Origin: an uncultured Desulfobacteraceae bacterium
GTDB lineage: Bacteria; Desulfobacterota; Desulfobacteria; Desulfobacterales; SKZT01
NCBI GenBank assembly: GCA_964575975.1
Contig: CAZNTU010000130.1
Span: 1-15,417 of the forward strand
DNA: 15,417 nucleotides
Reading direction: 5' to 3'
The notes below the pieces were generated by a model, which saw nothing but the letters and a program-made list of their open reading frames with translations, ran no database searches and was not told the DNA's origin. Shown one piece after another: positions 6,017-15,417 of this stretch. The first letter of the stretch is position 1, and every line of letters begins with the position of its first letter. The translations under genes were made by a program, and so were the position numbers.

Positions 6017-6196
6017 TCAGTGATGCCCTTCGTGGCCGCCATGGCCGTGGCTTCCCTGGCCTTTCACGGTATCGTATACGGTTTTCAGAACGACGAACGT
6101 CATTCCCGCGCCCAATATCGACAGAGCGTACCATAAACCGCCGTGAAAGACGAAGTGGCTCATATCCCAAATCCATTCAAAGGAAAACGGAAACAT
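6017..6196 (-). CDS. Unannotated small membrane protein (59 aa): MFPFSFEWIWDMSHFVFHGGLWYALSILGAGMTFVVLKTVYDTVKGQGSHGHGGHEGHH. Single TM helix plus a His-rich C-terminal tail
   Basis: Below the size cutoff of the ORF track. ATG at 6194-6196 (minus) has AAGGAGGG 7 nt upstream and lies only 18 nt after the qrcD stop. Stop TGA at 6017-6019. The terminator follows directly. Translated by hand from the sequence. Confidence 0.55.
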   Translation of the reverse strand: MFPFSFEWIWDMSHFVFHGGLWYALSILGAGMTFVVLKTVYDTVKGQGSHGHGGHEGHH

Positions 6197-6214: not shown

Positions 6215-7540
6215 TCAGGCTGTTTTGGCTATAGCGGTCGGAGCAAAATCTCCGGCCGGCTCTTGCTCTGCTTCCTCCGCCTTTTCGGTCGCGGCGCCAG
6301 GCAAAGGATTCAATTCCTTTTCCTGGGGGAATACGGGCAGGTAGCGGTAGGACAGGGAAATCAGGATTATGCCGTAGGCTACCGGCAGAATGGTGGTCGC
6401 GATCTCCTGCCAGCTGGGGAAGTAGGTGAACCAGCTTTCGAACGGCATGACGGGAACGGCCAGCACTTGCAGGACCATGACCCAACGATTGACGCTAACG
6501 CCGACGCAAGCCAAAGTGACCGCGATCCAGAGGGCGACCTTGTTCTGCCTTCCGGCCTTGGTCACCAGGATCAGCGCGGGAACCACGCCGCCGAGCACCA
6601 CTTCGAGGAACAGAATCCAATAACCGTACGCCGAACCGGGATTGTTGGTGTAGAAGTCGGCCAGTGTGAATCCCATGGCGGGAGCCGTGTTGATCGCCCA
6701 GTAGACGGTATCGACGATCTTCGCCACGATGTAGGTCAAAAGCATCCAACCGGCGATCTTGGCCAACAGCTCAATCACGTTGTCCTTTACCAGCTTTTTG
6801 CCCGTGGCGACTTCCGTGATCTTCGTCACCAAGATTGTGAAGCACGGACCGCAGGCGGCGGCTGACCAAGTGAAGAGAAAGAAAGTCCAAGGCCAGATCA
6901 GAACGCCTTCGCGAAATCCGAAGGGCCGTCCGAAAAGCACGCCGGCGACGCCGCCCAGGGAGCCTTGATGGAAAAAGGACAGGAAGGCGCCGGTTGCGGC
7001 GAAGACGGCCATGAACTCGTGCATGTTGTGGCTTAAATTGTGGAAAAACGGGACTTTGTCGATCTGGCGGTTTTCCAGGACGAGAGGAATGTACTCTATG
7101 GTCAGAACCGCGAAGTAGCAGGACAGACAGAACGCCACTTCGGTAAGCATGGAGTGTACGTTCGCATGCCAGAAGATAAACCATCCTCTGAGCGGCTGAC
7201 CGATGTCGATCGCCAGAATCAGCAAGGCGGAACTGTAGCATATAAAGCCGATCAGAACCGCGTAGTTGATGATGTTCTTAAGTTCCTTCAGGTTGAAGAT
7301 GTAGCGTAAAAGCCCTGAGAAGAACGCGCCGCCGCCCAACGCGATCACCGCGAGGTCGGCCCAAATCCACAGGGCGAATCCGTACGCGTCGTTCATGTTG
7401 GTCTGGTTCAATCCTTTTACCCAACAAAGGATCATGGCGTAAACGCCAATGGCCAGAACCACGCCGACAGCGCCGATCCACAAGACAAACTTTCCGAGTG
7501 AACAGCGTTGGACACCCTCGGGAATTAATTCGGAATCCAT
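6215..7540 (-). CDS. qrcD: NrfD/PsrC-family polytopic membrane subunit (441 aa), QrcD-like quinone-interacting subunit
   Basis: About 10 hydrophobic helices. Size fits QrcD/ActC rather than the 8-TM PsrC. AGGAG RBS upstream of the ATG at 7540. Last gene of the cytochrome / Mo-family / Fe-S / NrfD module. Confidence 0.85.
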   Translation of the reverse strand: MDSELIPEGVQRCSLGKFVLWIGAVGVVLAIGVYAMILCWVKGLNQTNMNDAYGFALWIWADLAVIALGGGAFFSGLLRYIFNLKELKNIINYAVLIGFICYSSALLILAIDIGQPLRGWFIFWHANVHSMLTEVAFCLSCYFAVLTIEYIPLVLENRQIDKVPFFHNLSHNMHEFMAVFAATGAFLSFFHQGSLGGVAGVLFGRPFGFREGVLIWPWTFFLFTWSAAACGPCFTILVTKITEVATGKKLVKDNVIELLAKIAGWMLLTYIVAKIVDTVYWAINTAPAMGFTLADFYTNNPGSAYGYWILFLEVVLGGVVPALILVTKAGRQNKVALWIAVTLACVGVSVNRWVMVLQVLAVPVMPFESWFTYFPSWQEIATTILPVAYGIILISLSYRYLPVFPQEKELNPLPGAATEKAEEAEQEPAGDFAPTAIAKTA

Positions 7541-7612
7541 AAGGTATGCGCTCCTAAATGTTTAAACGGTTTCTATCACCACTGTTATTGCCTGAATATT
7601 GCAAAACCCCGA

Positions 7613-8428
7613 TCACTTATGGCCTCCGGCGGTTTTGGCGGCCTTGGCCACTTCCTTGGTTTCGCTTTCCAAGTAGTTGTCGCCCGACCTGCGGACCCAT
7701 TCCCTGGAGGAGACGTAATAAACTTTCGGATTGGTGTGAAGTCTTTCCAGGAGCCTGAACGCGTTGGGATTTTGTTTGAGTTCGTAAACCGCGTGCTTTG
7801 GATTGTCCAAGTCTCCGAACGTGATCGCGTCGACAGGACAGGCCTGGGCGCATGCGGTCTGATATTCATGCTCTTCCAGTTCCTTTCTTCCCTCGTAGAT
7901 GGCCTTGTCCATGGCCAACTGGTAGCGGTGGAAACAGAAACTGCATTTTTCGACGATACCGCGCATACGAACGGAAACGTTGGGGCTGAGATATTTTTCC
8001 ATTCCCTTGGGCCAGACCGGGTCCCACCAGTTGAAGTACCGGACATGGTAAGGACAGGCGGCCATGCAGTATCGGCACCCGAAACATCTCGTGTAAATCT
8101 GGCTGACAATGCCGGTTTCCATGCTGTAGTCGGTGGCGGTCGCGGGGCAGACCGAAACGCAGGGCGAATGCCCGTGCTCCCCGACGCCCGAACAATGCTG
8201 GCACGGTCTCGGAAGGTAGCAAATGTCCGTGTCCGGATAAGATTTGCCGTTGGTCAGCTTGTAAACCCGGAGCCACGTGATGCTCCGAATCTTATCCGTT
8301 TCGTCTTTCTTGAAAGGCACGTTGTTCTCCTGCATGCAAGCCACCATGCAGGCGCCGCACCCGGTGCATTTGTCCAGGTCGATGACCATACCGTATTTTT
8401 TGGCGTGTGTATTGTGTCCTTTTTCCAT
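7613..8428 (-). CDS. qrcC: Four-cluster [4Fe-4S] ferredoxin-type subunit (271 aa), QrcC/PsrB-like. No signal peptide
   Basis: Four Cys motifs: CTGCGACMVAC, CQHC-x10-C-x3-CP, CFGCRYCMAACP and CSFC...CAQACP. No N-terminal signal, consistent with Tat hitchhiking on the large subunit. Confidence 0.9.
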   Translation of the reverse strand: MEKGHNTHAKKYGMVIDLDKCTGCGACMVACMQENNVPFKKDETDKIRSITWLRVYKLTNGKSYPDTDICYLPRPCQHCSGVGEHGHSPCVSVCPATATDYSMETGIVSQIYTRCFGCRYCMAACPYHVRYFNWWDPVWPKGMEKYLSPNVSVRMRGIVEKCSFCFHRYQLAMDKAIYEGRKELEEHEYQTACAQACPVDAITFGDLDNPKHAVYELKQNPNAFRLLERLHTNPKVYYVSSREWVRRSGDNYLESETKEVAKAAKTAGGHK

Positions 8429-8452
8429 CAGAACCTCATATAGATTTTCAAT

Positions 8453-8520
8453 CTTTCAGCTGTCGGCCTTCAGCTTGCTCCGAATCGCGCGACGCGAAAA
8501 ACCAGGCCGTAAGCTGAAAG
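8453..8520. repeat. Imperfect 16-nt inverted repeat CTTTCAGCTGTCGGCC (8453-8468) / GGCCGTAAGCTGAAAG (8505-8520), 14 of 16 complementary, with 36-nt spacer. A nested TCGCG-CGA-CGCGA mini-hairpin sits at 8485-8497
   Basis: Seen in the 112-nt qrcB-qrcC intergenic region. Would form a long-range stem-loop in the polycistronic mRNA. Confidence 0.5.
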
Positions 8521-8540
8521 CTAAAATTATTTTGAAAAGC

Positions 8541-10775
8541 TTAGGCTTTGGTCAATTTCGCCCGGATTCCCCATGCCGCGTTCAATCCCGTGAGCGGATC
8601 CTCGACAACCTTAAGCAACTGGTTGGCGTTGAGGCCCTTGCCCCGTCCCATGTACTCGTCAAAGGCGGTGTGGCCCAATCCGGTGGGAATCGCGATCACG
8701 CCCGGCAGGATACCGTCGAACAAGGTCACCTTCACTTTCGCCGTGCCGGCCGCCGTTTGCAATTCGGCGTAGTCGCCTTCTTCCAAACCGGCTTTCTCCG
8801 CCGTCTTCGGATTCATCTCCACCACCACGTCATTATGGAACAAGACTTCGTTGGGGACTGTCTTGAGCATGAAAGGCGTCGTAGCCGCGTACCCTTTCGA
8901 GCGTCTCATGGAATCGTATGGAATAAGCGTGTAGTTTCCGGCTTCCATTTCGATCCCAAGGCTCTCGAAGTGCGGCAACCCTCTATTGTTCTCCTGGGGG
9001 TTCTTCACCGCAGTCGCCAAAAACTCGAACTTTTTCGAACTCGTCTCGAAGTTCCAAGGGTTGGGGACGACTTCGTCGCTTACCGCGACGACATCCTTCA
9101 GCAACGCGTCCCATTTGTCGCCGAGGGTTTCCTTCAAACAGGTCTCATAGTCGCACCAAGGGAACGCCTCGGATACCGAGCCGCCGAGTTTCTTCGCGAT
9201 CCCCAAAATGGCGTCGCCGGTATGCATGGTGTTCAGCTGAGGCTTGACCACCGGTTTGGCAAGCGCGAGAACCGGTTTTTTCAAACCCGCCGCGATCGGA
9301 ACGTCTTCGTAGCGCTCCAGGTAGACATGGTTGGGAAGGATCAGATCGGAAAACGCGGCCGTTTCGTCCATGAAGGAGGAGAAGCTTGCGACGAAGGGGA
9401 TTTGGGAGAAGGCTTTTTTAACGGCGTCCGTGTCGTTCATGGTGTAGAGAGGATTGGCGTTGGCGATCAGAAGCGCCTTGACGTCGTACTTTTCGCCGGC
9501 GTTGAGGATTTTGGGGAAGCGTTCCAGAAGGCTCTCTGCGCACAGCCACTCGTCGGACCCGGCGCCGTCAATCCGTCCTTTTTGAAGTCCTGCGGAAGCG
9601 ATCTCGTCGGCTCGAACCTCCGGCCATGCGATATAATCGAATTTCGGAAGGGACCATACGCCGCCTTCGGAATTGATGTTTCCGACGAGCGCGTTCAACG
9701 CCTGAACTGCCATGACTTCGTGAACGGAACCGGGAATGTCGCCCTTTCCTCTTCCGCATACGGCCAACGGTTTCTTGGCCTCGGCGAACTCGAGGGCCAA
9801 TTCCACGATGGTTTCCTCGCCGATCCCGGTGATCTCCGCGACCTCGCCCGGGCTGTAGTCGTTGGTCACGAGGTTCTTGAACTCCTTGAAACCGCTCGAT
9901 CCCGTATCGACAAAGTTCTTGAGGTACTTTTTCTGACGTACGATCACATGGGCGATGCCCATGGCCAAAGCGGCCTCCGTGCCGGGATTGATCGGAATCC
10001 ATTTGTCCATCTTTGCCGCAGTGGTAGAAAGGCGCGGTTCGATCTGGATCACCTTGCCCCTTTCGCGAATCCCGTTGATCGCCTGGAACATGCGGATGGG
10101 AGAACCCCATCCCTCGATCAACCCGCTGCCGAAACTCAAGAGGTAGTCGGTGTTTTCAAAGTCGAACCCGACCGGTCCCTCCGAGCCTTGCATCAGTTTG
10201 GCGGCGGTCCGGTACGTATCGAAGACGGTGGCGGGGGTCATGAAGTTCGAAGAGCCGTAAGCCGTCGTGAATCTTTTCAAGAGAGCGCCCACGGTGCCTT
10301 TGTCGTCCCCCGAAATCGCGGCCACCTTTTCCGGCTCGCCGGCGGCCCTGATCTCGGCCAGCTTCTCCGAAACGATGTCGATCGCCTCGTCCCAGGAAAT
10401 TTTCTGCCACTTGCCCTCGCCCCTTTCGCCGATTCTCTTCATGGGGGAAGGAACCCTGAAGGGACCGTAAAGATATTGAAGGCCGGAGGCGCCGAGGATG
10501 CAAATGCCGCCGTCGTTGACAGGGCTTCCTTCGGTCCCCTCGATCTTGATCGCCCTGTTGTCCACTTTCCGGACGGAAATGCCGCAACCGCCGGGGCAGA
10601 GCGTGCATACGGTATTTTCGTACGCGTATTGTCCATCGGGGGGAACCGGCGTCCATGGCCACATTTGAGTCCAAATTGACAAATCGTCCGTCAGTTTCCA
10701 GGGCAGCGGCGTAAGGTTAATCCCCGCAGCGGCCCCGACGGCGAGTGATAAGAAACATCTTCTGCTAAGTTTCAT
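8541..10775 (-). CDS. qrcB: Molybdopterin-oxidoreductase-family large subunit (744 aa precursor) with twin-arginine signal, QrcB-like. Start moved to the ATG at 10773-10775
   Basis: MKLSRRCFLSLAVGAAAG... gives a Tat motif SRRCFL. GAGGT SD lies 7 nt upstream of this ATG, and the track start at 10838 has no SD. N-terminal CTLCPGGC...C four-Cys cluster motif. Length and domain order match molybdopterin-family enzymes. Confidence 0.9.
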   Translation of the reverse strand: MKLSRRCFLSLAVGAAAGINLTPLPWKLTDDLSIWTQMWPWTPVPPDGQYAYENTVCTLCPGGCGISVRKVDNRAIKIEGTEGSPVNDGGICILGASGLQYLYGPFRVPSPMKRIGERGEGKWQKISWDEAIDIVSEKLAEIRAAGEPEKVAAISGDDKGTVGALLKRFTTAYGSSNFMTPATVFDTYRTAAKLMQGSEGPVGFDFENTDYLLSFGSGLIEGWGSPIRMFQAINGIRERGKVIQIEPRLSTTAAKMDKWIPINPGTEAALAMGIAHVIVRQKKYLKNFVDTGSSGFKEFKNLVTNDYSPGEVAEITGIGEETIVELALEFAEAKKPLAVCGRGKGDIPGSVHEVMAVQALNALVGNINSEGGVWSLPKFDYIAWPEVRADEIASAGLQKGRIDGAGSDEWLCAESLLERFPKILNAGEKYDVKALLIANANPLYTMNDTDAVKKAFSQIPFVASFSSFMDETAAFSDLILPNHVYLERYEDVPIAAGLKKPVLALAKPVVKPQLNTMHTGDAILGIAKKLGGSVSEAFPWCDYETCLKETLGDKWDALLKDVVAVSDEVVPNPWNFETSSKKFEFLATAVKNPQENNRGLPHFESLGIEMEAGNYTLIPYDSMRRSKGYAATTPFMLKTVPNEVLFHNDVVVEMNPKTAEKAGLEEGDYAELQTAAGTAKVKVTLFDGILPGVIAIPTGLGHTAFDEYMGRGKGLNANQLLKVVEDPLTGLNAAWGIRAKLTKA

Positions 10776-10859
10776 GGATTTTACCTCGTTATGTGAAAAT
10801 GCGAGCAATATTATTCTTGTTTTTTTTCGAGTCCGCAACAGAATGATATTTCATAGCTC

Positions 10860-11549
10860 TTACTTGTGGCAAACGAAGCAGGCGCCTTTTTCCGTCTGGA
10901 CGCTGCTTTGATTGACGTTGTTCTCCTGGTGGCATTCCGAGCAATCGTCCATCTTCATCCGGTCCCACGTGTTTTTCTTGAGCCCGGCGATGTTTTTGCC
11001 CCAAATGTTCCGGCTGTAGCCGGAAATTCTATTGTATTCGTAGATCGGCAAAGTTGTGGACCCCCCGATGTCGCCGTGGCAGGTCCGGCAATTCATTTCG
11101 CCGGATATCACGTGGGCCGCGTGCGAGAAGAACACGCAATCGGGTTGCCTGGAATAAACGAGCCATGGAACCTCCAGGCCGTTCGCGACATATTGCTCCA
11201 CGAAAATGGCTTCGTCCTCGCTCCCCCCTTGCACCTCGTAGTGGCAGTCCACGCACTGGGCAAGCTTGGGAGCGCCGGAAAACGTACCGTCTTCACGGAA
11301 GAAATGGCAGCTCTGGCAACCGTTGTCCACCATCTCGTTGTGAAGCTGGTGGTTAAAATCGAACGGCTGCTTCTTCTGCGAATAGAGGACTTTGGGAAAC
11401 CCAATCCATCCTACCAAAAGGCTCGCAACCAATCCGACAACGAAGAAAATGAAGACGATCCCAATGGTGTTTTTCTTCCCGGAAGCCTCGGCGCTTTCAT
11501 CGGCCGCTTCCGCTGAAGCCTCTTTGGCCTTTTCCTCTGATGTGCTCAT
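10860..11549 (-). CDS. qrcA: Membrane-anchored pentaheme cytochrome c (229 aa), QrcA/ActA-like
   Basis: Five CxxCH motifs (CQSCH, CVDCH, CRTCH, CSECH, CFVCH). N-terminal acidic tail, then one TM helix IGIVFIFFVVGLVASLLVGWIGF. GGAG SD 6 nt upstream of the ATG at 11549. Confidence 0.88.
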   Translation of the reverse strand: MSTSEEKAKEASAEAADESAEASGKKNTIGIVFIFFVVGLVASLLVGWIGFPKVLYSQKKQPFDFNHQLHNEMVDNGCQSCHFFREDGTFSGAPKLAQCVDCHYEVQGGSEDEAIFVEQYVANGLEVPWLVYSRQPDCVFFSHAAHVISGEMNCRTCHGDIGGSTTLPIYEYNRISGYSRNIWGKNIAGLKKNTWDRMKMDDCSECHQENNVNQSSVQTEKGACFVCHK

Positions 11550-11575
11550 GGAATCTCCGTCAAAAAGTGGTTTAA

Positions 11576-11616
11576 ATTTTCACAAAAGAACCCAAACAGA
11601 CCTTGAAAAAATTCAA
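11576..11616 (-). promoter_or_regulatory. Candidate class II CRP/FNR-family-dependent promoter for qrcA. TTGAA-N4-TTCAA dyad (11603-11616) is centred about 40.5 bp upstream of a predicted TSS. Extended -10 TGTGAAAAT (minus strand, 11584-11576)
   Basis: Dyad core TTGA-N6-TCAA matches 8 of 10 positions of the FNR box. The TG-n-GAAAAT spacing is exact for an extended -10. Predicted 5' UTR is about 20 nt. All positions hand-derived; no experimental support. Confidence 0.4.
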
Positions 11617-11796
11617 CGCCGGTTCCGTCGCCTTTTTCGAAATCGTATGGCCTGTACAATGAAAAAGCGCCGAATCGGGCGTTTCCGAACTTGAAAAGAA
11701 ACTATTTCCATAGGGTCGGGCGCCCGCCCCGAACAAACGGGACTGAAAATAATTTGAGTCTGTTTATCTATAGTTATCTGTTTTGTCAAGAAAAAA

Positions 11797-12639
11797 TCAT
11801 TGACCCATGCTGCCGTAACTGTGCAAGCCCGGCAAAAGATTCACGCCGAAATACGTGAAAAGGACCGCGGCGAAACCCGCCACCGACAGCCATGCGATTC
11901 TCTTCCCTCGCCACCCGCGCATCATCCTGGCATGGATCAGCGTCGAATAGATAAACCACGTGATCAGAGACCATGTTTCCTTCGGGTCCCATCCCCAATA
12001 GCGGCCCCACGCGCTGTTGGCCCAGACCGCCCCCGTTATGATGCCCGCCGTGAGAAACAAAAACCCGAACATCACGAGCTGGTAAATCAACTCGTCCAAA
12101 ATCGACGAGTCCGGAAGCCGACCGAGGAGACTGCTTTCGCTCCGGGCGCGTTTCTTCAGGATGTACATGACGGCGATTCCGAAGGCGACCGCGAAAGCCG
12201 CGTAGCCGACAAAGCACGTGATCACGTGGGCGATCAGCCAGTTGCTTTTCAAAGCCGGGACCAACGGCTGTATACGGTCGCTGATGTTCGGGGAAAGGCT
12301 CGCGTAGGCCAGGGCCAGGAAAGCCAAAGGCGCGGTGAACGCACCGATGACCCGGTTCTTGTACTTCATTTCGAGAACCAGGTAGACCGCTATGATGGTC
12401 ATCGAAAAAAAGACCAGGGATTCGTAAAGGTTGGACAAAGGCGCGTGACCGAAACCCATTTGGTAGGATTCGATCCATCGCAGCGCGATTCCGGCCAGGT
12501 TTCCGAAAAGTCCGGCCAAGGCGACCCATGTGGCCGCCTTGGCCGGACTTTCTTTCTTGAAAACCCACGAAAAAACATACAGAAACGCCGACAATCCATA
12601 AACGAACGTAGTGACGGACAATATGCTGGAACTGTTCAT
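11797..12639 (-). CDS. ccsA: Cytochrome c biogenesis protein CcsA/ResC (system II heme-handling protein, 280 aa)
   Basis: Polytopic membrane protein with the tryptophan-rich WWD motif WGRYWGWDPKETW and conserved flanking His residues. GAGAGG SD upstream of the ATG at 12639. Confidence 0.9.
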   Translation of the reverse strand: MNSSSILSVTTFVYGLSAFLYVFSWVFKKESPAKAATWVALAGLFGNLAGIALRWIESYQMGFGHAPLSNLYESLVFFSMTIIAVYLVLEMKYKNRVIGAFTAPLAFLALAYASLSPNISDRIQPLVPALKSNWLIAHVITCFVGYAAFAVAFGIAVMYILKKRARSESSLLGRLPDSSILDELIYQLVMFGFLFLTAGIITGAVWANSAWGRYWGWDPKETWSLITWFIYSTLIHARMMRGWRGKRIAWLSVAGFAAVLFTYFGVNLLPGLHSYGSMGQ

Positions 12640-12682
12640 TCAAACCTCTCGATTCAATAATATAAAAGGTGCGGGGGCGGGA

Positions 12683-14059
12683 TTATTCCATCGCCCGCAA
12701 TTGCTCCAAAATACTTTTCACCTTTTGCGCCATCCCGAGTTTGTTCTTGTTCGAAGAACCGGCGACCGTCACGCGGCATCCGTTGCCGGTCCGGACAGCC
12801 TCCACGAACAGGCGCTGGTGGGATATGAAAAAAGTGACGAAACATCCGGCGATCATCACGACAAAGCCGAGATATACAAGGGGGACGCCAGGATCGTACG
12901 TGACCTGAAGACCCGTATAGAATTTCTCGTCGTATTTTTCCACCGCGATCACGAACTCGCCTTTTCGCATGCGGTCGAAATTGGGAAAGCGAAGAGGCAA
13001 TACGATCTCGACCGGCTCCTTGTCCTTGAGGTTCAATGTTCCGATGAACGCCTGGCCGATAGAATGTCCCCGGAACTGCGCGTTGTCGCTGAAGCTTTGC
13101 AGCACGAATGTACCCTTGCCGTCAGGAAGATCGATCGTTTGGCCGACCTTCGCCTTTTTCATGATATTGAACCCGAACTCCTCTTCCCTAGTGGCGATGC
13201 TCAAGGTGACCGTGTCCGAGGGGACGGACCCGTAGCTAGACTGGAAAATATTGATGCCCTCGTATCTCAGAGGATCGTTAACGATGATGTCCTTTTTCAG
13301 AACTTCCTTGCCGTTCTCCAGTATCGTCAGCGAGCTTCGGTATTCCTTGGGGGTGCCGGACTCGTAGAAGCTGACGTCGAAATCGTCGCACCGAATCGCG
13401 AAATCGAGGGCTTGAATCGCGGGTTTGTTTCGCAGGCGGATGCTGTCGACGGTCTCGCCCTCGGGGATGTTGACGAATCCCTCGAATCCCATGATGGAGC
13501 CGATCAGACCGCCCAGCAGCAAAAAAATTATGCTCAGATGGACGATATAAGCCCCCAACCGGGTCCAACGTCCCTTTTCAGCTAAAAAGACCCACCCATT
13601 GTCGGTCTCTTCGACGCGGCAATAACCGAATTTCCTGCGAAGGAAAGGTTCGTACAGTTTGCGCAAGTCCTGGGCCGACCGGTCTCTTTCAAACTCCTCC
13701 TTGTCGGAATCGCCTCTGAAGCGTCCCGGATTGAAGGAGGGCTCTTTCACGAAAACCACCTTCCAAGCGGTCGGAAGCCTGTCCAGGGAACACACGACCA
13801 CGTTGGCCGTCAAGACGATCAGGACAAGCTGAAACCACCACGAATGGTACATGTCGAACAGATCCAGGAACGAAAACAGCGCGTAGAGCTTCGGGCCGTA
13901 GGCTTGCATATAGGCTGCGGGGCTTTCGTTCTGGGGGATGACGGTACCTATTATGGAAGTGGCCGCCAAGGTCAACAATACCGCGACCGTAAGCTTTACG
14001 GACGCGAAAAACCTCCACACCCCGCCAAGGGGGGTCGGAGAGGTATCGCTTCGTTCCAT
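12683..14059 (-). CDS. ccsB: Cytochrome c biogenesis protein CcsB/ResB (458 aa). Start taken at ATG 14057-14059 (MERSDTS...), not the track ATG at 14098
   Basis: N-terminal TM helix after WRFFASVKLTVAVLL, a large soluble middle domain, and a C-terminal TM pair (VYLGFVVMIAGCFVTFFISH), which is the typical ResB architecture. AAAGGA SD 8 nt upstream of the 14059 ATG. Nothing SD-like before 14098. Confidence 0.85.
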   Translation of the reverse strand: MERSDTSPTPLGGVWRFFASVKLTVAVLLTLAATSIIGTVIPQNESPAAYMQAYGPKLYALFSFLDLFDMYHSWWFQLVLIVLTANVVVCSLDRLPTAWKVVFVKEPSFNPGRFRGDSDKEEFERDRSAQDLRKLYEPFLRRKFGYCRVEETDNGWVFLAEKGRWTRLGAYIVHLSIIFLLLGGLIGSIMGFEGFVNIPEGETVDSIRLRNKPAIQALDFAIRCDDFDVSFYESGTPKEYRSSLTILENGKEVLKKDIIVNDPLRYEGINIFQSSYGSVPSDTVTLSIATREEEFGFNIMKKAKVGQTIDLPDGKGTFVLQSFSDNAQFRGHSIGQAFIGTLNLKDKEPVEIVLPLRFPNFDRMRKGEFVIAVEKYDEKFYTGLQVTYDPGVPLVYLGFVVMIAGCFVTFFISHQRLFVEAVRTGNGCRVTVAGSSNKNKLGMAQKVKSILEQLRAME

Positions 14060-14599
14060 CAATAATTCCTTTCCGATTCTATCCGGACTCGATCCCATAA
14101 TCGACGTCTCGTCAAAATGCCGTTTCGTGCAATCCGCGCGGGCGCGCCGGTTCGCGGCTCTCCTTCAAATCGACGAACGAGCATAATATTCATCCTCCCG
14201 GGACTTTTCCAGGTCTAACGCGAATTTTAGTGTCGGGTTTTCCCGTAGCCGCATTGGCTGGAAAATCGTTGCGGAAACATGTTTCATACTTTTCGGCTCG
14301 AGGCACCTACCCGACTCGATCATTGTTGGCGGCGCCCCGATGCAATAGGAGGTTATAACAAAACGGCAATATGGAAGCAACACAAAGAAAAAAACTGGAT
14401 TTGTTTAAAAATCGGCGGATTCGGAACTTGCAGGCAAGTACCGTGCTGTGGAAACGCGATTCTTGACAATTCCGGTTTCCGTATAAGGTTTTGATGTAAC
14501 GAGGCCGATCGAAAATGAAAACAACGATATGAAAGCGCGCGCCGAATTGGAAAAATGGACGGGCGGCAACCTTTTTATTCATGCCGCATTAAGCGAGGC

Positions 14600-14628
14600 T
14601 TAACTATATTATAAAACTATATTATAAA
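14600..14628 (+). promoter_or_regulatory. Candidate sigma70 promoter for the small Cys-rich ORF: TTAACT (14600-14605), 17 bp spacer, TATAAA (14623-14628)
   Basis: Hexamers and spacing read from sequence. Embedded in the tandem 13-bp repeat. Predicted 5' UTR about 115 nt. Confidence 0.3.
14602..14627. repeat. Perfect tandem direct repeat AACTATATTATAA x2, followed by AGGTG-N5-AGGTG
   Basis: Exact 13-mer at 14602-14614 and 14615-14627. AT-rich island inside a GC-richer genome. Confidence 0.9.
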
Positions 14629-14749
14629 GGTGATAAAAGGTGTGCAGAATCCGGACTCGGACACTCGTCCGCGCTGGCGTGGCGCGAAACGGCCTATCGA
14701 CAAACGAAAATCGGAAACGGGAAGCGTACCGGCTCCCCAAGGAGGAAAT

Positions 14750-14920
14750 ATGGCAAAATCTTCAAACGCTCGCAAGTGTTGTTCGATGGAAAAGGAACAC
14801 CTGATGGAGGAACTTAGAAAATGCGACATGAGTTCCTCCAATTACGACGAATTTCACCAGTGCTACCGGGATGCCGCAAGAGAAAGCGGCCTGCGCGCCA
14901 GATCGTGCGTCACCGAATAG
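14750..14920 (+). CDS. Small Cys-rich hypothetical protein (56 aa): MAKSSNARKCCSMEKEHLMEELRKCDMSSSNYDEFHQCYRDAARESGLRARSCVTE
   Basis: ATG at 14750 with AGGAGG 5 nt upstream (14741-14746). TAG stop at 14918-14920, followed 20 nt later by a strong terminator. Five Cys including a CC pair. The longer track ORF from 14630 lacks an RBS. Confidence 0.55.
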   Translation: MAKSSNARKCCSMEKEHLMEELRKCDMSSSNYDEFHQCYRDAARESGLRARSCVTE

Positions 14921-14939: not shown

Positions 14940-14974
14940 AAAAAGCCGCAGGGGATATCCCCTGCGGCTTTTTT
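14940..14974. terminator. Bidirectional rho-independent terminator: perfect 24-nt palindrome GCCGCAGGGGATATCCCCTGCGGC flanked by A5 and T6
   Basis: 10-bp GC-rich stem with ATAT loop. T6 on the plus side and T5 on the minus side. Sits between the convergent Cys-rich ORF and the encapsulin gene. Confidence 0.88.
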
Positions 14975-15007: not shown

Positions 15008-15417
15008 TTATCTTTTTATGCTCATTTTAACGAATACCGAGTCGTCGAGGATGCGGAACGTAAACGATTCGGTCAGGTAAAGCGAGACGGTGTCCTTGTC
15101 GTGCTGGGCGTAGCCGATCATATAATCCTGCCCCAAAATCAGCTCCAAATCTCCGCCGCGCATGGAAACCAGAAAGGCGTCCCGAATTTCCGAAGCGTAC
15201 AAGATCGGACCCCCTAAAAGATTTTCGATATGCCGTCGCAAAGGATAACCGTTCAAATGCCTTGAGAGAGTTCGCCATTCCGCCGGATTTACCACAAGCG
15301 CGTACGGTCCCTCTACCGAGGCTTCCAGCAGGGTGGTTATCCCTGTCGAAACGGCCTCCAGGATCTCGGGAATTTGGTCGGAAAACTCCAGAAAGTGCCG
15401 GGACGCTTCGTACATCC
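15008..15417 (-). CDS. Family-1 encapsulin (linocin M18-type) nanocompartment shell protein. Only the C-terminal ~135 residues are in the window; the 5' end lies beyond the window edge
   Basis: The C-terminus ...VEGPYALVVNPAEW...GYPL...LVSMRGGDLELILGQDYMIGYAQHDKDTVSLYLTESFTFRILDDSVFV aligns residue-for-residue in character with the T. maritima encapsulin C-terminus (GPYTLVINTDRW...GHYPL...[50 protein letters not shown]). The M at 15415 is internal. Confidence 0.88.
   Translation of the reverse strand, partial: MYEASRHFLEFSDQIPEILEAVSTGITTLLEASVEGPYALVVNPAEWRTLSRHLNGYPLRRHIENLLGGPILYASEIRDAFLVSMRGGDLELILGQDYMIGYAQHDKDTVSLYLTESFTFRILDDSVFVKMSIKR

Follow-up and report, generated by a model that had tools for sequence, protein, structure and literature searches.

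The window analysed here, that is, the whole stretch of DNA of 15417 bp, breaks off inside a gene on its minus strand. The locus raises the question of what this gene encodes and, for a shell gene of the encapsulin type, which cargo its shell would enclose. Since the window is the complete public contig (NCBI, ENA), the N-terminal half of the gene and any cargo gene lie off the contig. The features of the window are collected in Table 1.

Table 1. Features of the 15417-bp window, from the contig end inwards
Feature	Position	Strand	Evidence or remark
Family-1 encapsulin shell gene, C-terminal 135 codons and TAA stop (15010-15008)	15008-15417	-	Translation, Pfam, NCBIfam, PDB, AlphaFold model, gapless alignment
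Perfect 34-nt palindrome, likely bidirectional intrinsic terminator	14940-14973	.	Repeat search, RNA fold
Cys-rich ORF, 56 aa, 5 Cys, MAKSSNARKCCSMEKEHLMEELRKCDMSSSNYDEFHQCYRDAARESGLRARSCVTE	14750-14920	+	Translation; called as gene in public annotation
Perfect tandem 13-nt direct repeat, AACTATATTATAA x2	14602-14627		
resB	12683-14098	-	Pfam PF05140 only; no NCBIfam match
ccsB	11797-12639	-	Above NCBIfam cutoff
QrcA	10860-11549	-	Above NCBIfam equivalog cutoff
QrcB	8541-10838	-	Above NCBIfam equivalog cutoff
QrcC	7613-8428	-	Above NCBIfam equivalog cutoff
QrcD	6215-7540	-	Above NCBIfam equivalog cutoff
59-aa ORF between qrcD and murA	6017-6196	-	Gene call in ENA contig annotation; no Pfam match

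A family-1 encapsulin shell gene at the contig end

The reading frame is open from position 15415 down to its stop codon, and the last two bases of the contig (15416-15417) form a split codon. Since the first Met of the translation (MYEASRHFLEFSDQIPEILEAVSTGITTLLEASVEGPYALVVNPAEWRTLSRHLNGYPLRRHIENLLGGPILYASEIRDAFLVSMRGGDLELILGQDYMIGYAQHDKDTVSLYLTESFTFRILDDSVFVKMSIKR) is aligned with an internal Leu of the full-length relatives (residue 129-132 of 263-266 aa), it is not the start codon. The fragment matched the Pfam model PF04454 (Linocin_M18) with an E value of 2.7e-32 and 112.5 bits (cutoff, 24.3) over profile positions 137-253 of 253. The NCBIfam equivalog model NF041155 (encap_f1, 'family 1 encapsulin nanocompartment shell protein') was matched with 121.3 bits over profile positions 132-260 of 261. 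The curated cutoff of NF041155, 100, is set for the whole protein and was passed by the C-terminal half alone, and both family-1 models were thus matched above their curated cutoffs. When PDB sequences were searched with phmmer, the shells of B. linens (7BCV), T. maritima (3DKT), and H. ochraceum (7ODW) were recovered with E values of about 1e-25, and the matches always spanned residues ~141-265 of these shells. None of these family and sequence matches is anywhere near the level of chance.

An AlphaFold model of the fragment only (residues ~130-265), based on a 35-sequence alignment, had a mean pLDDT of 83.4. As found by Foldseek with this model, 3DKT was matched with an E value of 8e-12 and a TMq of 0.71, 7BCV with a TMq of 0.74, and 7ODW within the range of 0.71-0.74. 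The best 50 PDB matches listed were all encapsulin shells, natural or engineered, or encapsulin-like particles. The best 28 were shells of the T. maritima, M. tuberculosis, B. linens, and H. ochraceum type at 32-42% identity, with the one exception of D. quercicolus at 22%; the T=3/T=4 shells of M. xanthus (EncA), Q. thermotolerans, and P. furiosus ranked lower, at 17-21% identity. The HK97-type fold was thus recovered for residues ~130-265 by the model and the Foldseek matches. The fragment also kept the conserved residues G36, P37, Y38, W47, Y57, and P58 and the motifs GGD, GQD, and ESFTF.

The protein encoded at 15008-15417 is the C-terminal part, 135 residues long, of a family-1 (classical) encapsulin shell protein; the shell family and the fold of the C-terminal half are seen directly. 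Judged by its sequence, it is an ordinary and somewhat divergent family-1 shell and no new kind; nothing in the collections searched is more than 65% identical to it. The original prediction had placed an encapsulin-like C-terminus of 135 residues at the window edge, in a gene running off the contig, and had proposed the Linocin_M18 model as a check. The sequence models, the PDB sequences, and the structure matches all bear it out, the Linocin_M18 match being obtained on the C-terminal half.

Encapsulins have the HK97 fold in common with phage capsids. A major capsid protein of an HK97-type prophage would share this fold, and a few relatives of the fragment bear an extra PF05065 phage-capsid annotation. 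However, the best matches of the fragment were encapsulin-specific models above curated cutoffs, and its top structural matches were all encapsulins. Moreover, the 15 kb downstream contain no phage genes, only housekeeping and respiratory ones: a prophage morphogenesis context is absent on the 3' side of the shell gene, where the neighbours are the Cys-rich micro-ORF and, on the minus strand beyond it, ResB, CcsB, QrcA, QrcB, QrcC, QrcD, MurA, and an MFS transporter. The relatives, in turn, adjoin EncFtn genes and not portal, protease, or terminase genes. The chance that the fragment is a prophage capsid is close to nil.

Relatives of the fragment and their cargo genes

When 1.84 billion cluster representatives were searched exhaustively with HMMER, 676 homologues were found, the full-length ones being about 260-275 aa long; the best full-length homologue of this search (P0067, 269 aa) was 60% identical to the fragment. 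A first, word-indexed search with the fragment had returned only proteins of at most 230 aa and at most 54% identity, and the 65% relatives were missed. The closest relatives were found when a chimeric query, made of the N-terminal half of P0067 and the fragment, was used, and all retrieved proteins were re-ranked against the fragment alone. They are P0227 (L011; 65% identical; annotated as a Desulfobacteraceae MAG), P0219 (L012; loci L012-L014; 64%), P0226 (L015; 64%), P0228 (L098; 63%), and P0222 (L096; loci L096-L097; 62%). These five full-length proteins are 263-266 aa long, have the standard architecture, align without gaps across all 135 residues of the fragment, and are all encoded on Desulfobacteraceae-type contigs. 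By its sequence, the fragment is placed in a small Desulfobacteraceae-type subclade, in which the shell is always paired with EncFtn.

In long-read-style assemblies, several encapsulin genes are split or shortened (L008 4676-5514, 85 and 209 aa; L010 5001-5621, 206 aa), apparently by frameshift errors. Such apparent errors account for many of the short 'linocin' proteins in the first search.

An EncFtn gene is located directly upstream of all five nearest shells (62-65% identical). In four of them (L011, L012-L014, L015, and L096-L097), the upstream gene carries PF22277 (EncFtn-like), encodes 125-131 aa, and ends 4-11 nt ahead of the shell start. In L098 (P0228), the contig ends within the upstream ORF, for which Pfam gives no call; the ORF shares 1 nt with the start codon of the shell gene and, judged by its translation, is clearly an EncFtn as well. 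The five translations have in common MTDYHEPL... and the ferroxidase motif ...RDEEIEHA... (EEIEH). Their C-terminal targeting peptides (SISIGSLKNKTL, DIGIGSLKHIRTEKG, SIGIGSLKNKTP, GIGVGSLKSPKPQRG, or DMGIGSLKHIDRKGAK) are of the GSLK type, with IGIGSLK, GVGSLK, or SISIGSLK. The original prediction had left the cargo among four types; because all five nearest shells follow an EncFtn with a GSLK-type tail, the ferritin-like type is singled out.

As a background, 80 more distant JGI loci (35-49% identical) were taken, and the 63 with at least 450 nt upstream were counted by a crude criterion, namely whether an ORF on the plus strand ends close to the shell start. An EncFtn homologue was upstream in 51 of the 63 (81%). 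Other targeting-peptide-bearing proteins were found in three, two of them DyP-sized (351 and 378 aa) and one of 184 aa. The other nine had no cargo by these crude criteria; the shell ORF calls of eight of the nine are over-long. Upstream of P0005 (L007), which is 49% identical to the fragment, a 193-aa hemerythrin is encoded.

The shell might thus be intact and enclose a cargo other than EncFtn, that is, a hemerythrin, a DyP peroxidase, or another ferritin-like protein, or its cargo might be encoded elsewhere in the genome. The hemerythrin of P0005 and the background loci with other targeting-peptide proteins or without cargo by the crude criteria are consistent with this, and the diversity of family-1 cargos is documented (PMC8346489). 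Nevertheless, EncFtn was found in all five relatives of more than 60% identity and in the large majority of the background loci. In addition, no ORF in a credible frame with a targeting-peptide tail is present in the window's 15 kb downstream of the shell gene. A different cargo is therefore considered rather unlikely.

Among the closest known systems, the T. maritima encapsulin (maritimacin, 3DKT/7KQ5), which has an EncFtn/Flp cargo, is likewise a family-1 shell from an anaerobic host; the fragment aligns to its residues 143-261 with an E value of 4e-25, and the model matches it with a TMq of 0.71 at 37% identity. The T. maritima shell forms a T=1 cage, into which ferritin-like decamers are loaded via a C-terminal peptide (PMC8346489). 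It differs from the present system in that it is only about 37% identical and comes from a Thermotogota host and not from a Desulfobacterota sulfate reducer, and in that the C-terminal half alone is read here. The EncFtn-encapsulins of H. ochraceum (7ODW/7OE2) and R. rubrum are matched by the fragment model with a TMq of 0.71 at 37-38% identity. Their two genes form a classical operon, EncFtn first and the shell second; the shell is of the T=1 type, and the EncFtn, a decamer, has a ferroxidase site of the form E..ExxH (PMC11202242). Besides the identity of about 37-38%, they differ in that their operon is established, whereas that at 15008-15417 would be read from the relatives. The Desulfobacteraceae-type loci (P0227/L011, P0219/L012, P0226/L015, P0222/L096, and P0228/L098), which are uncharacterised, are the nearest sequences, have the same C-terminal length, and bear the shell as the last gene of an EncFtn-shell pair. 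They differ from the fragment in about 35% of residues, and their flanks are unrelated to the window's Qrc, ResB, and micro-ORF. We infer that the system of the fragment may work like the EncFtn-encapsulins of T. maritima, H. ochraceum, and R. rubrum.

We therefore favour, with a probability of roughly 0.7, the reading that the gene is an intact shell gene, the last of a short EncFtn-shell operon in a Qrc-containing sulfate-reducing Desulfobacterota, which would produce a T=1 nanocompartment for iron storage and oxidative-stress protection. By analogy with the relatives, the order of the operon, EncFtn and then the shell, is itself probable. The off-contig gene directly 5' of the shell would encode an EncFtn of about 125-131 aa, as in the nearest relatives. 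Its C-terminal GSLK-type peptide would dock the cargo to the inner face of the shell, in a pocket made by the N-terminal helix and the P-domain of the shell protein. Around EncFtn decamers, a T=1 cage ~24 nm across would be built by self-assembly from about 60 shell subunits, each of roughly 265 aa; this T number is suggested because the relatives are ~265 aa long and the closest similarity is to T=1 shells. The D5 decamers of EncFtn would oxidise Fe(II) at di-iron ferroxidase sites and could not hold the mineral alone, so that the ferric mineral would be retained by the shell, which may provide iron storage and protection from oxidative stress. This mechanism of decamers, peptide docking, and mineral storage in the cage is given after PMC8346489 and PMC11202242.

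Several points weigh against the EncFtn-operon reading. The nearest relatives are only 62-65% identical, a distance at which the cargo type can differ. The more distant P0005 (49% identical) has a hemerythrin upstream. Moreover, the N-terminal ~130 residues, with the N-terminal helix, the E-loop, and most of the P-domain, are beyond the contig together with the cargo gene, and an intact N-terminus would be expected by analogy with the five relatives. By the same analogy, the fragment most likely belongs to an iron-storage compartment of a well-known type. It adds a family-1 encapsulin from a Qrc-bearing sulfate reducer and has little import beyond annotation. For EncFtn in strict anaerobes, the known question is which oxidant drives the ferroxidase, and half a gene gives no new handle on it.

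The break inside the gene

An ENA SPAdes contig (NODE_5801 of ERZ17914141; L002) of 11321 bp and 7x coverage matched the window at 100% identity over the 10,410 nt of it that were retrieved, and its position 1 corresponds exactly to window base 15417. Two contigs of different size thus end on one and the same base within the shell gene. A 3.4-kb Logan contig (SRR5581382; L001) starts at window position 14969, inside the terminator hairpin. Exact-protein look-ups with the fragment, the micro-ORF, and ResB returned only the contigs that stop at the same base and the Logan contig, and the 135-aa partial product was absent from a protein-collection cluster look-up. No match was found by exact-DNA scans, in which a 72-nt pattern was run against the GTDB representative genomes and a 30-nt pattern taken from the contig end against the JGI metagenomes. 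When a protein pattern from the subclade alignment was scanned, the GTDB genomes gave 16 pattern matches with no relative among them, and the metagenomes gave only relatives at 49% identity or less, which were used as the background for cargo type. A profile of the N-terminal halves of the relatives combined with the first 25 residues of the fragment recovered no overlapping N-terminal fragment.

The sole short match of the latter search was P0334 (142 aa), from a 581-bp ENA contig, in which the first ~106 encapsulin residues are joined to an EncFtn C-terminal tail (...ITEIEEEPSP...IGIGSLKNKMP). We rejected it as a true fusion and regard it as an assembly chimera, apparently a short contig that was permuted circularly or joined wrongly at an EncFtn-shell junction.

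Since the second contig has a coverage of only 7x, is 100% identical, and probably derives from the same reads, the common end is explained by a coverage gap. Probably, the same low-coverage read set was assembled repeatedly, and a common coverage gap or graph branch is the simplest reading. The coincidence of the two ends could also mean a real discontinuity, which would count against the EncFtn-operon reading. In such a case, the 5' half of the gene might vary between strains, a mobile element might have inserted at the stop point, or the gene might have a non-canonical N-terminal fusion or cargo; we consider it very unlikely that either this holds or the compartment is wired to cytochrome c maturation and Qrc as an iron reservoir.

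A related concern is that only a remnant of the shell gene is left, decaying or interrupted: the gene would be a truncated orphan, or an insertion or rearrangement at the assembly stop would have split it, and no compartment would be made. Besides the common end of the two contigs, P0003 (52% identical; L004 6001-6639, also L005 and L006) speaks for it and against the EncFtn-operon reading: this protein is without its first ~43 residues, its C-terminus is aberrant (...LYFTDKTSYSP), no cargo gene is upstream of it, and it is identical in three JGI samples. P0003 is apparently an orphan encapsulin in decay. The fragment, in contrast, keeps 135 open codons, aligns without gaps to intact relatives, retains the conserved residues, and scores above the NCBIfam cutoff for the full-length protein. 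A remnant is accordingly judged improbable.

Terminator, micro-ORF, and respiratory neighbours

On its 3' side, the shell gene is followed by the perfect palindrome of Table 1, whose two 17-nt arms (AAAAAGCCGCAGGGGAT and, directly after it, ATCCCCTGCGGCTTTTT) are 100% complementary and 0 nt apart. The palindrome is located 34 nt past the stop of the shell gene and 19 nt past that of the convergent micro-ORF. Its stem is GC-rich, with an A run on one side and a T run on the other, which gives U-runs on both strands. The spacer RNA folds with about -39 kcal/mol (z=-5.46), and none of 200 shuffles was equally stable. The palindrome was not listed by a consensus terminator scan, probably since the T run is taken up into the stem, and Rfam gave only sub-threshold matches, on the terminator hairpin. 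The sequence features suggest that the palindrome is likely a bidirectional intrinsic terminator, which would end both the encapsulin operon and the convergent micro-ORF. The end of the operon with its terminator is in the window and is seen directly.

The micro-ORF has a strong Shine-Dalgarno sequence, AGGAGG, 4 nt ahead of its ATG. It is in frame inside an enclosing ORF of 96 aa (14630-14920), for which no Pfam or NCBIfam family was found, and its 90% cluster has two members only. No homologue of the micro-ORF was found beside any related encapsulin locus fetched. Since it is convergent, has no targeting-peptide motif in its tail, and has no homologue at the related loci, it was rejected as a cargo or a conserved partner of the shell.

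Qrc, a menaquinone reductase, is characteristic of sulfate-reducing Desulfobacterota. The window has a complete qrcABCD cluster; directly upstream of it are resB and ccsB, the genes for system II cytochrome c maturation (all in 6215-14098, minus strand). Proteins of Desulfobacterales MAGs are among the members of the QrcC cluster at 90% identity. The combination of Qrc and ResB/CcsB is typical of a sulfate-reducing Desulfobacterota host, and the host type is thereby seen directly. The original prediction had described a perfect bidirectional terminator, shared with a convergent Cys-rich micro-protein, and an anaerobe-like respiratory context of the shell gene. The palindrome with its A/T runs on both sides and its fold, the 56-aa ORF, and the matches of QrcABCD, CcsB, and ResB in Table 1 agree with this description, the respiratory context being one of adjacency only.

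With resB/ccsB and qrcABCD within about 1 kb, all of them iron- or haem-demanding, the encapsulin might be functionally coupled to these genes and might, for instance, store iron for the synthesis of multihaem cytochromes. However, the two units are convergent, a strong terminator separates them, and Qrc, ResB, and CcsB were found beside the encapsulin in none of the five nearest relatives. Because of the latter, the adjacency of the shell gene and the respiratory genes is not a conserved association. The respiratory neighbourhood is insulated from the shell gene by the terminator and is a mere adjacency; a functional coupling appears exceedingly unlikely.

The GC content of the shell fragment is 0.52 versus 0.53 for the window. 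Its codon GC3 is 0.64, the same as in murA (0.644), and the qrc, resB, and ccsB genes have higher values (0.71-0.74). Since the GC3 of the fragment equals that of murA, there is no clear sign of a recent transfer of the shell gene.

The non-coding gap of ~650 nt upstream of resB contains the tandem 13-nt repeat of Table 1. The repeat overlaps a minus-strand promoter-like site, TTATCA-17-TATAAT (14636-14608), and may act as an element of an operator or promoter.
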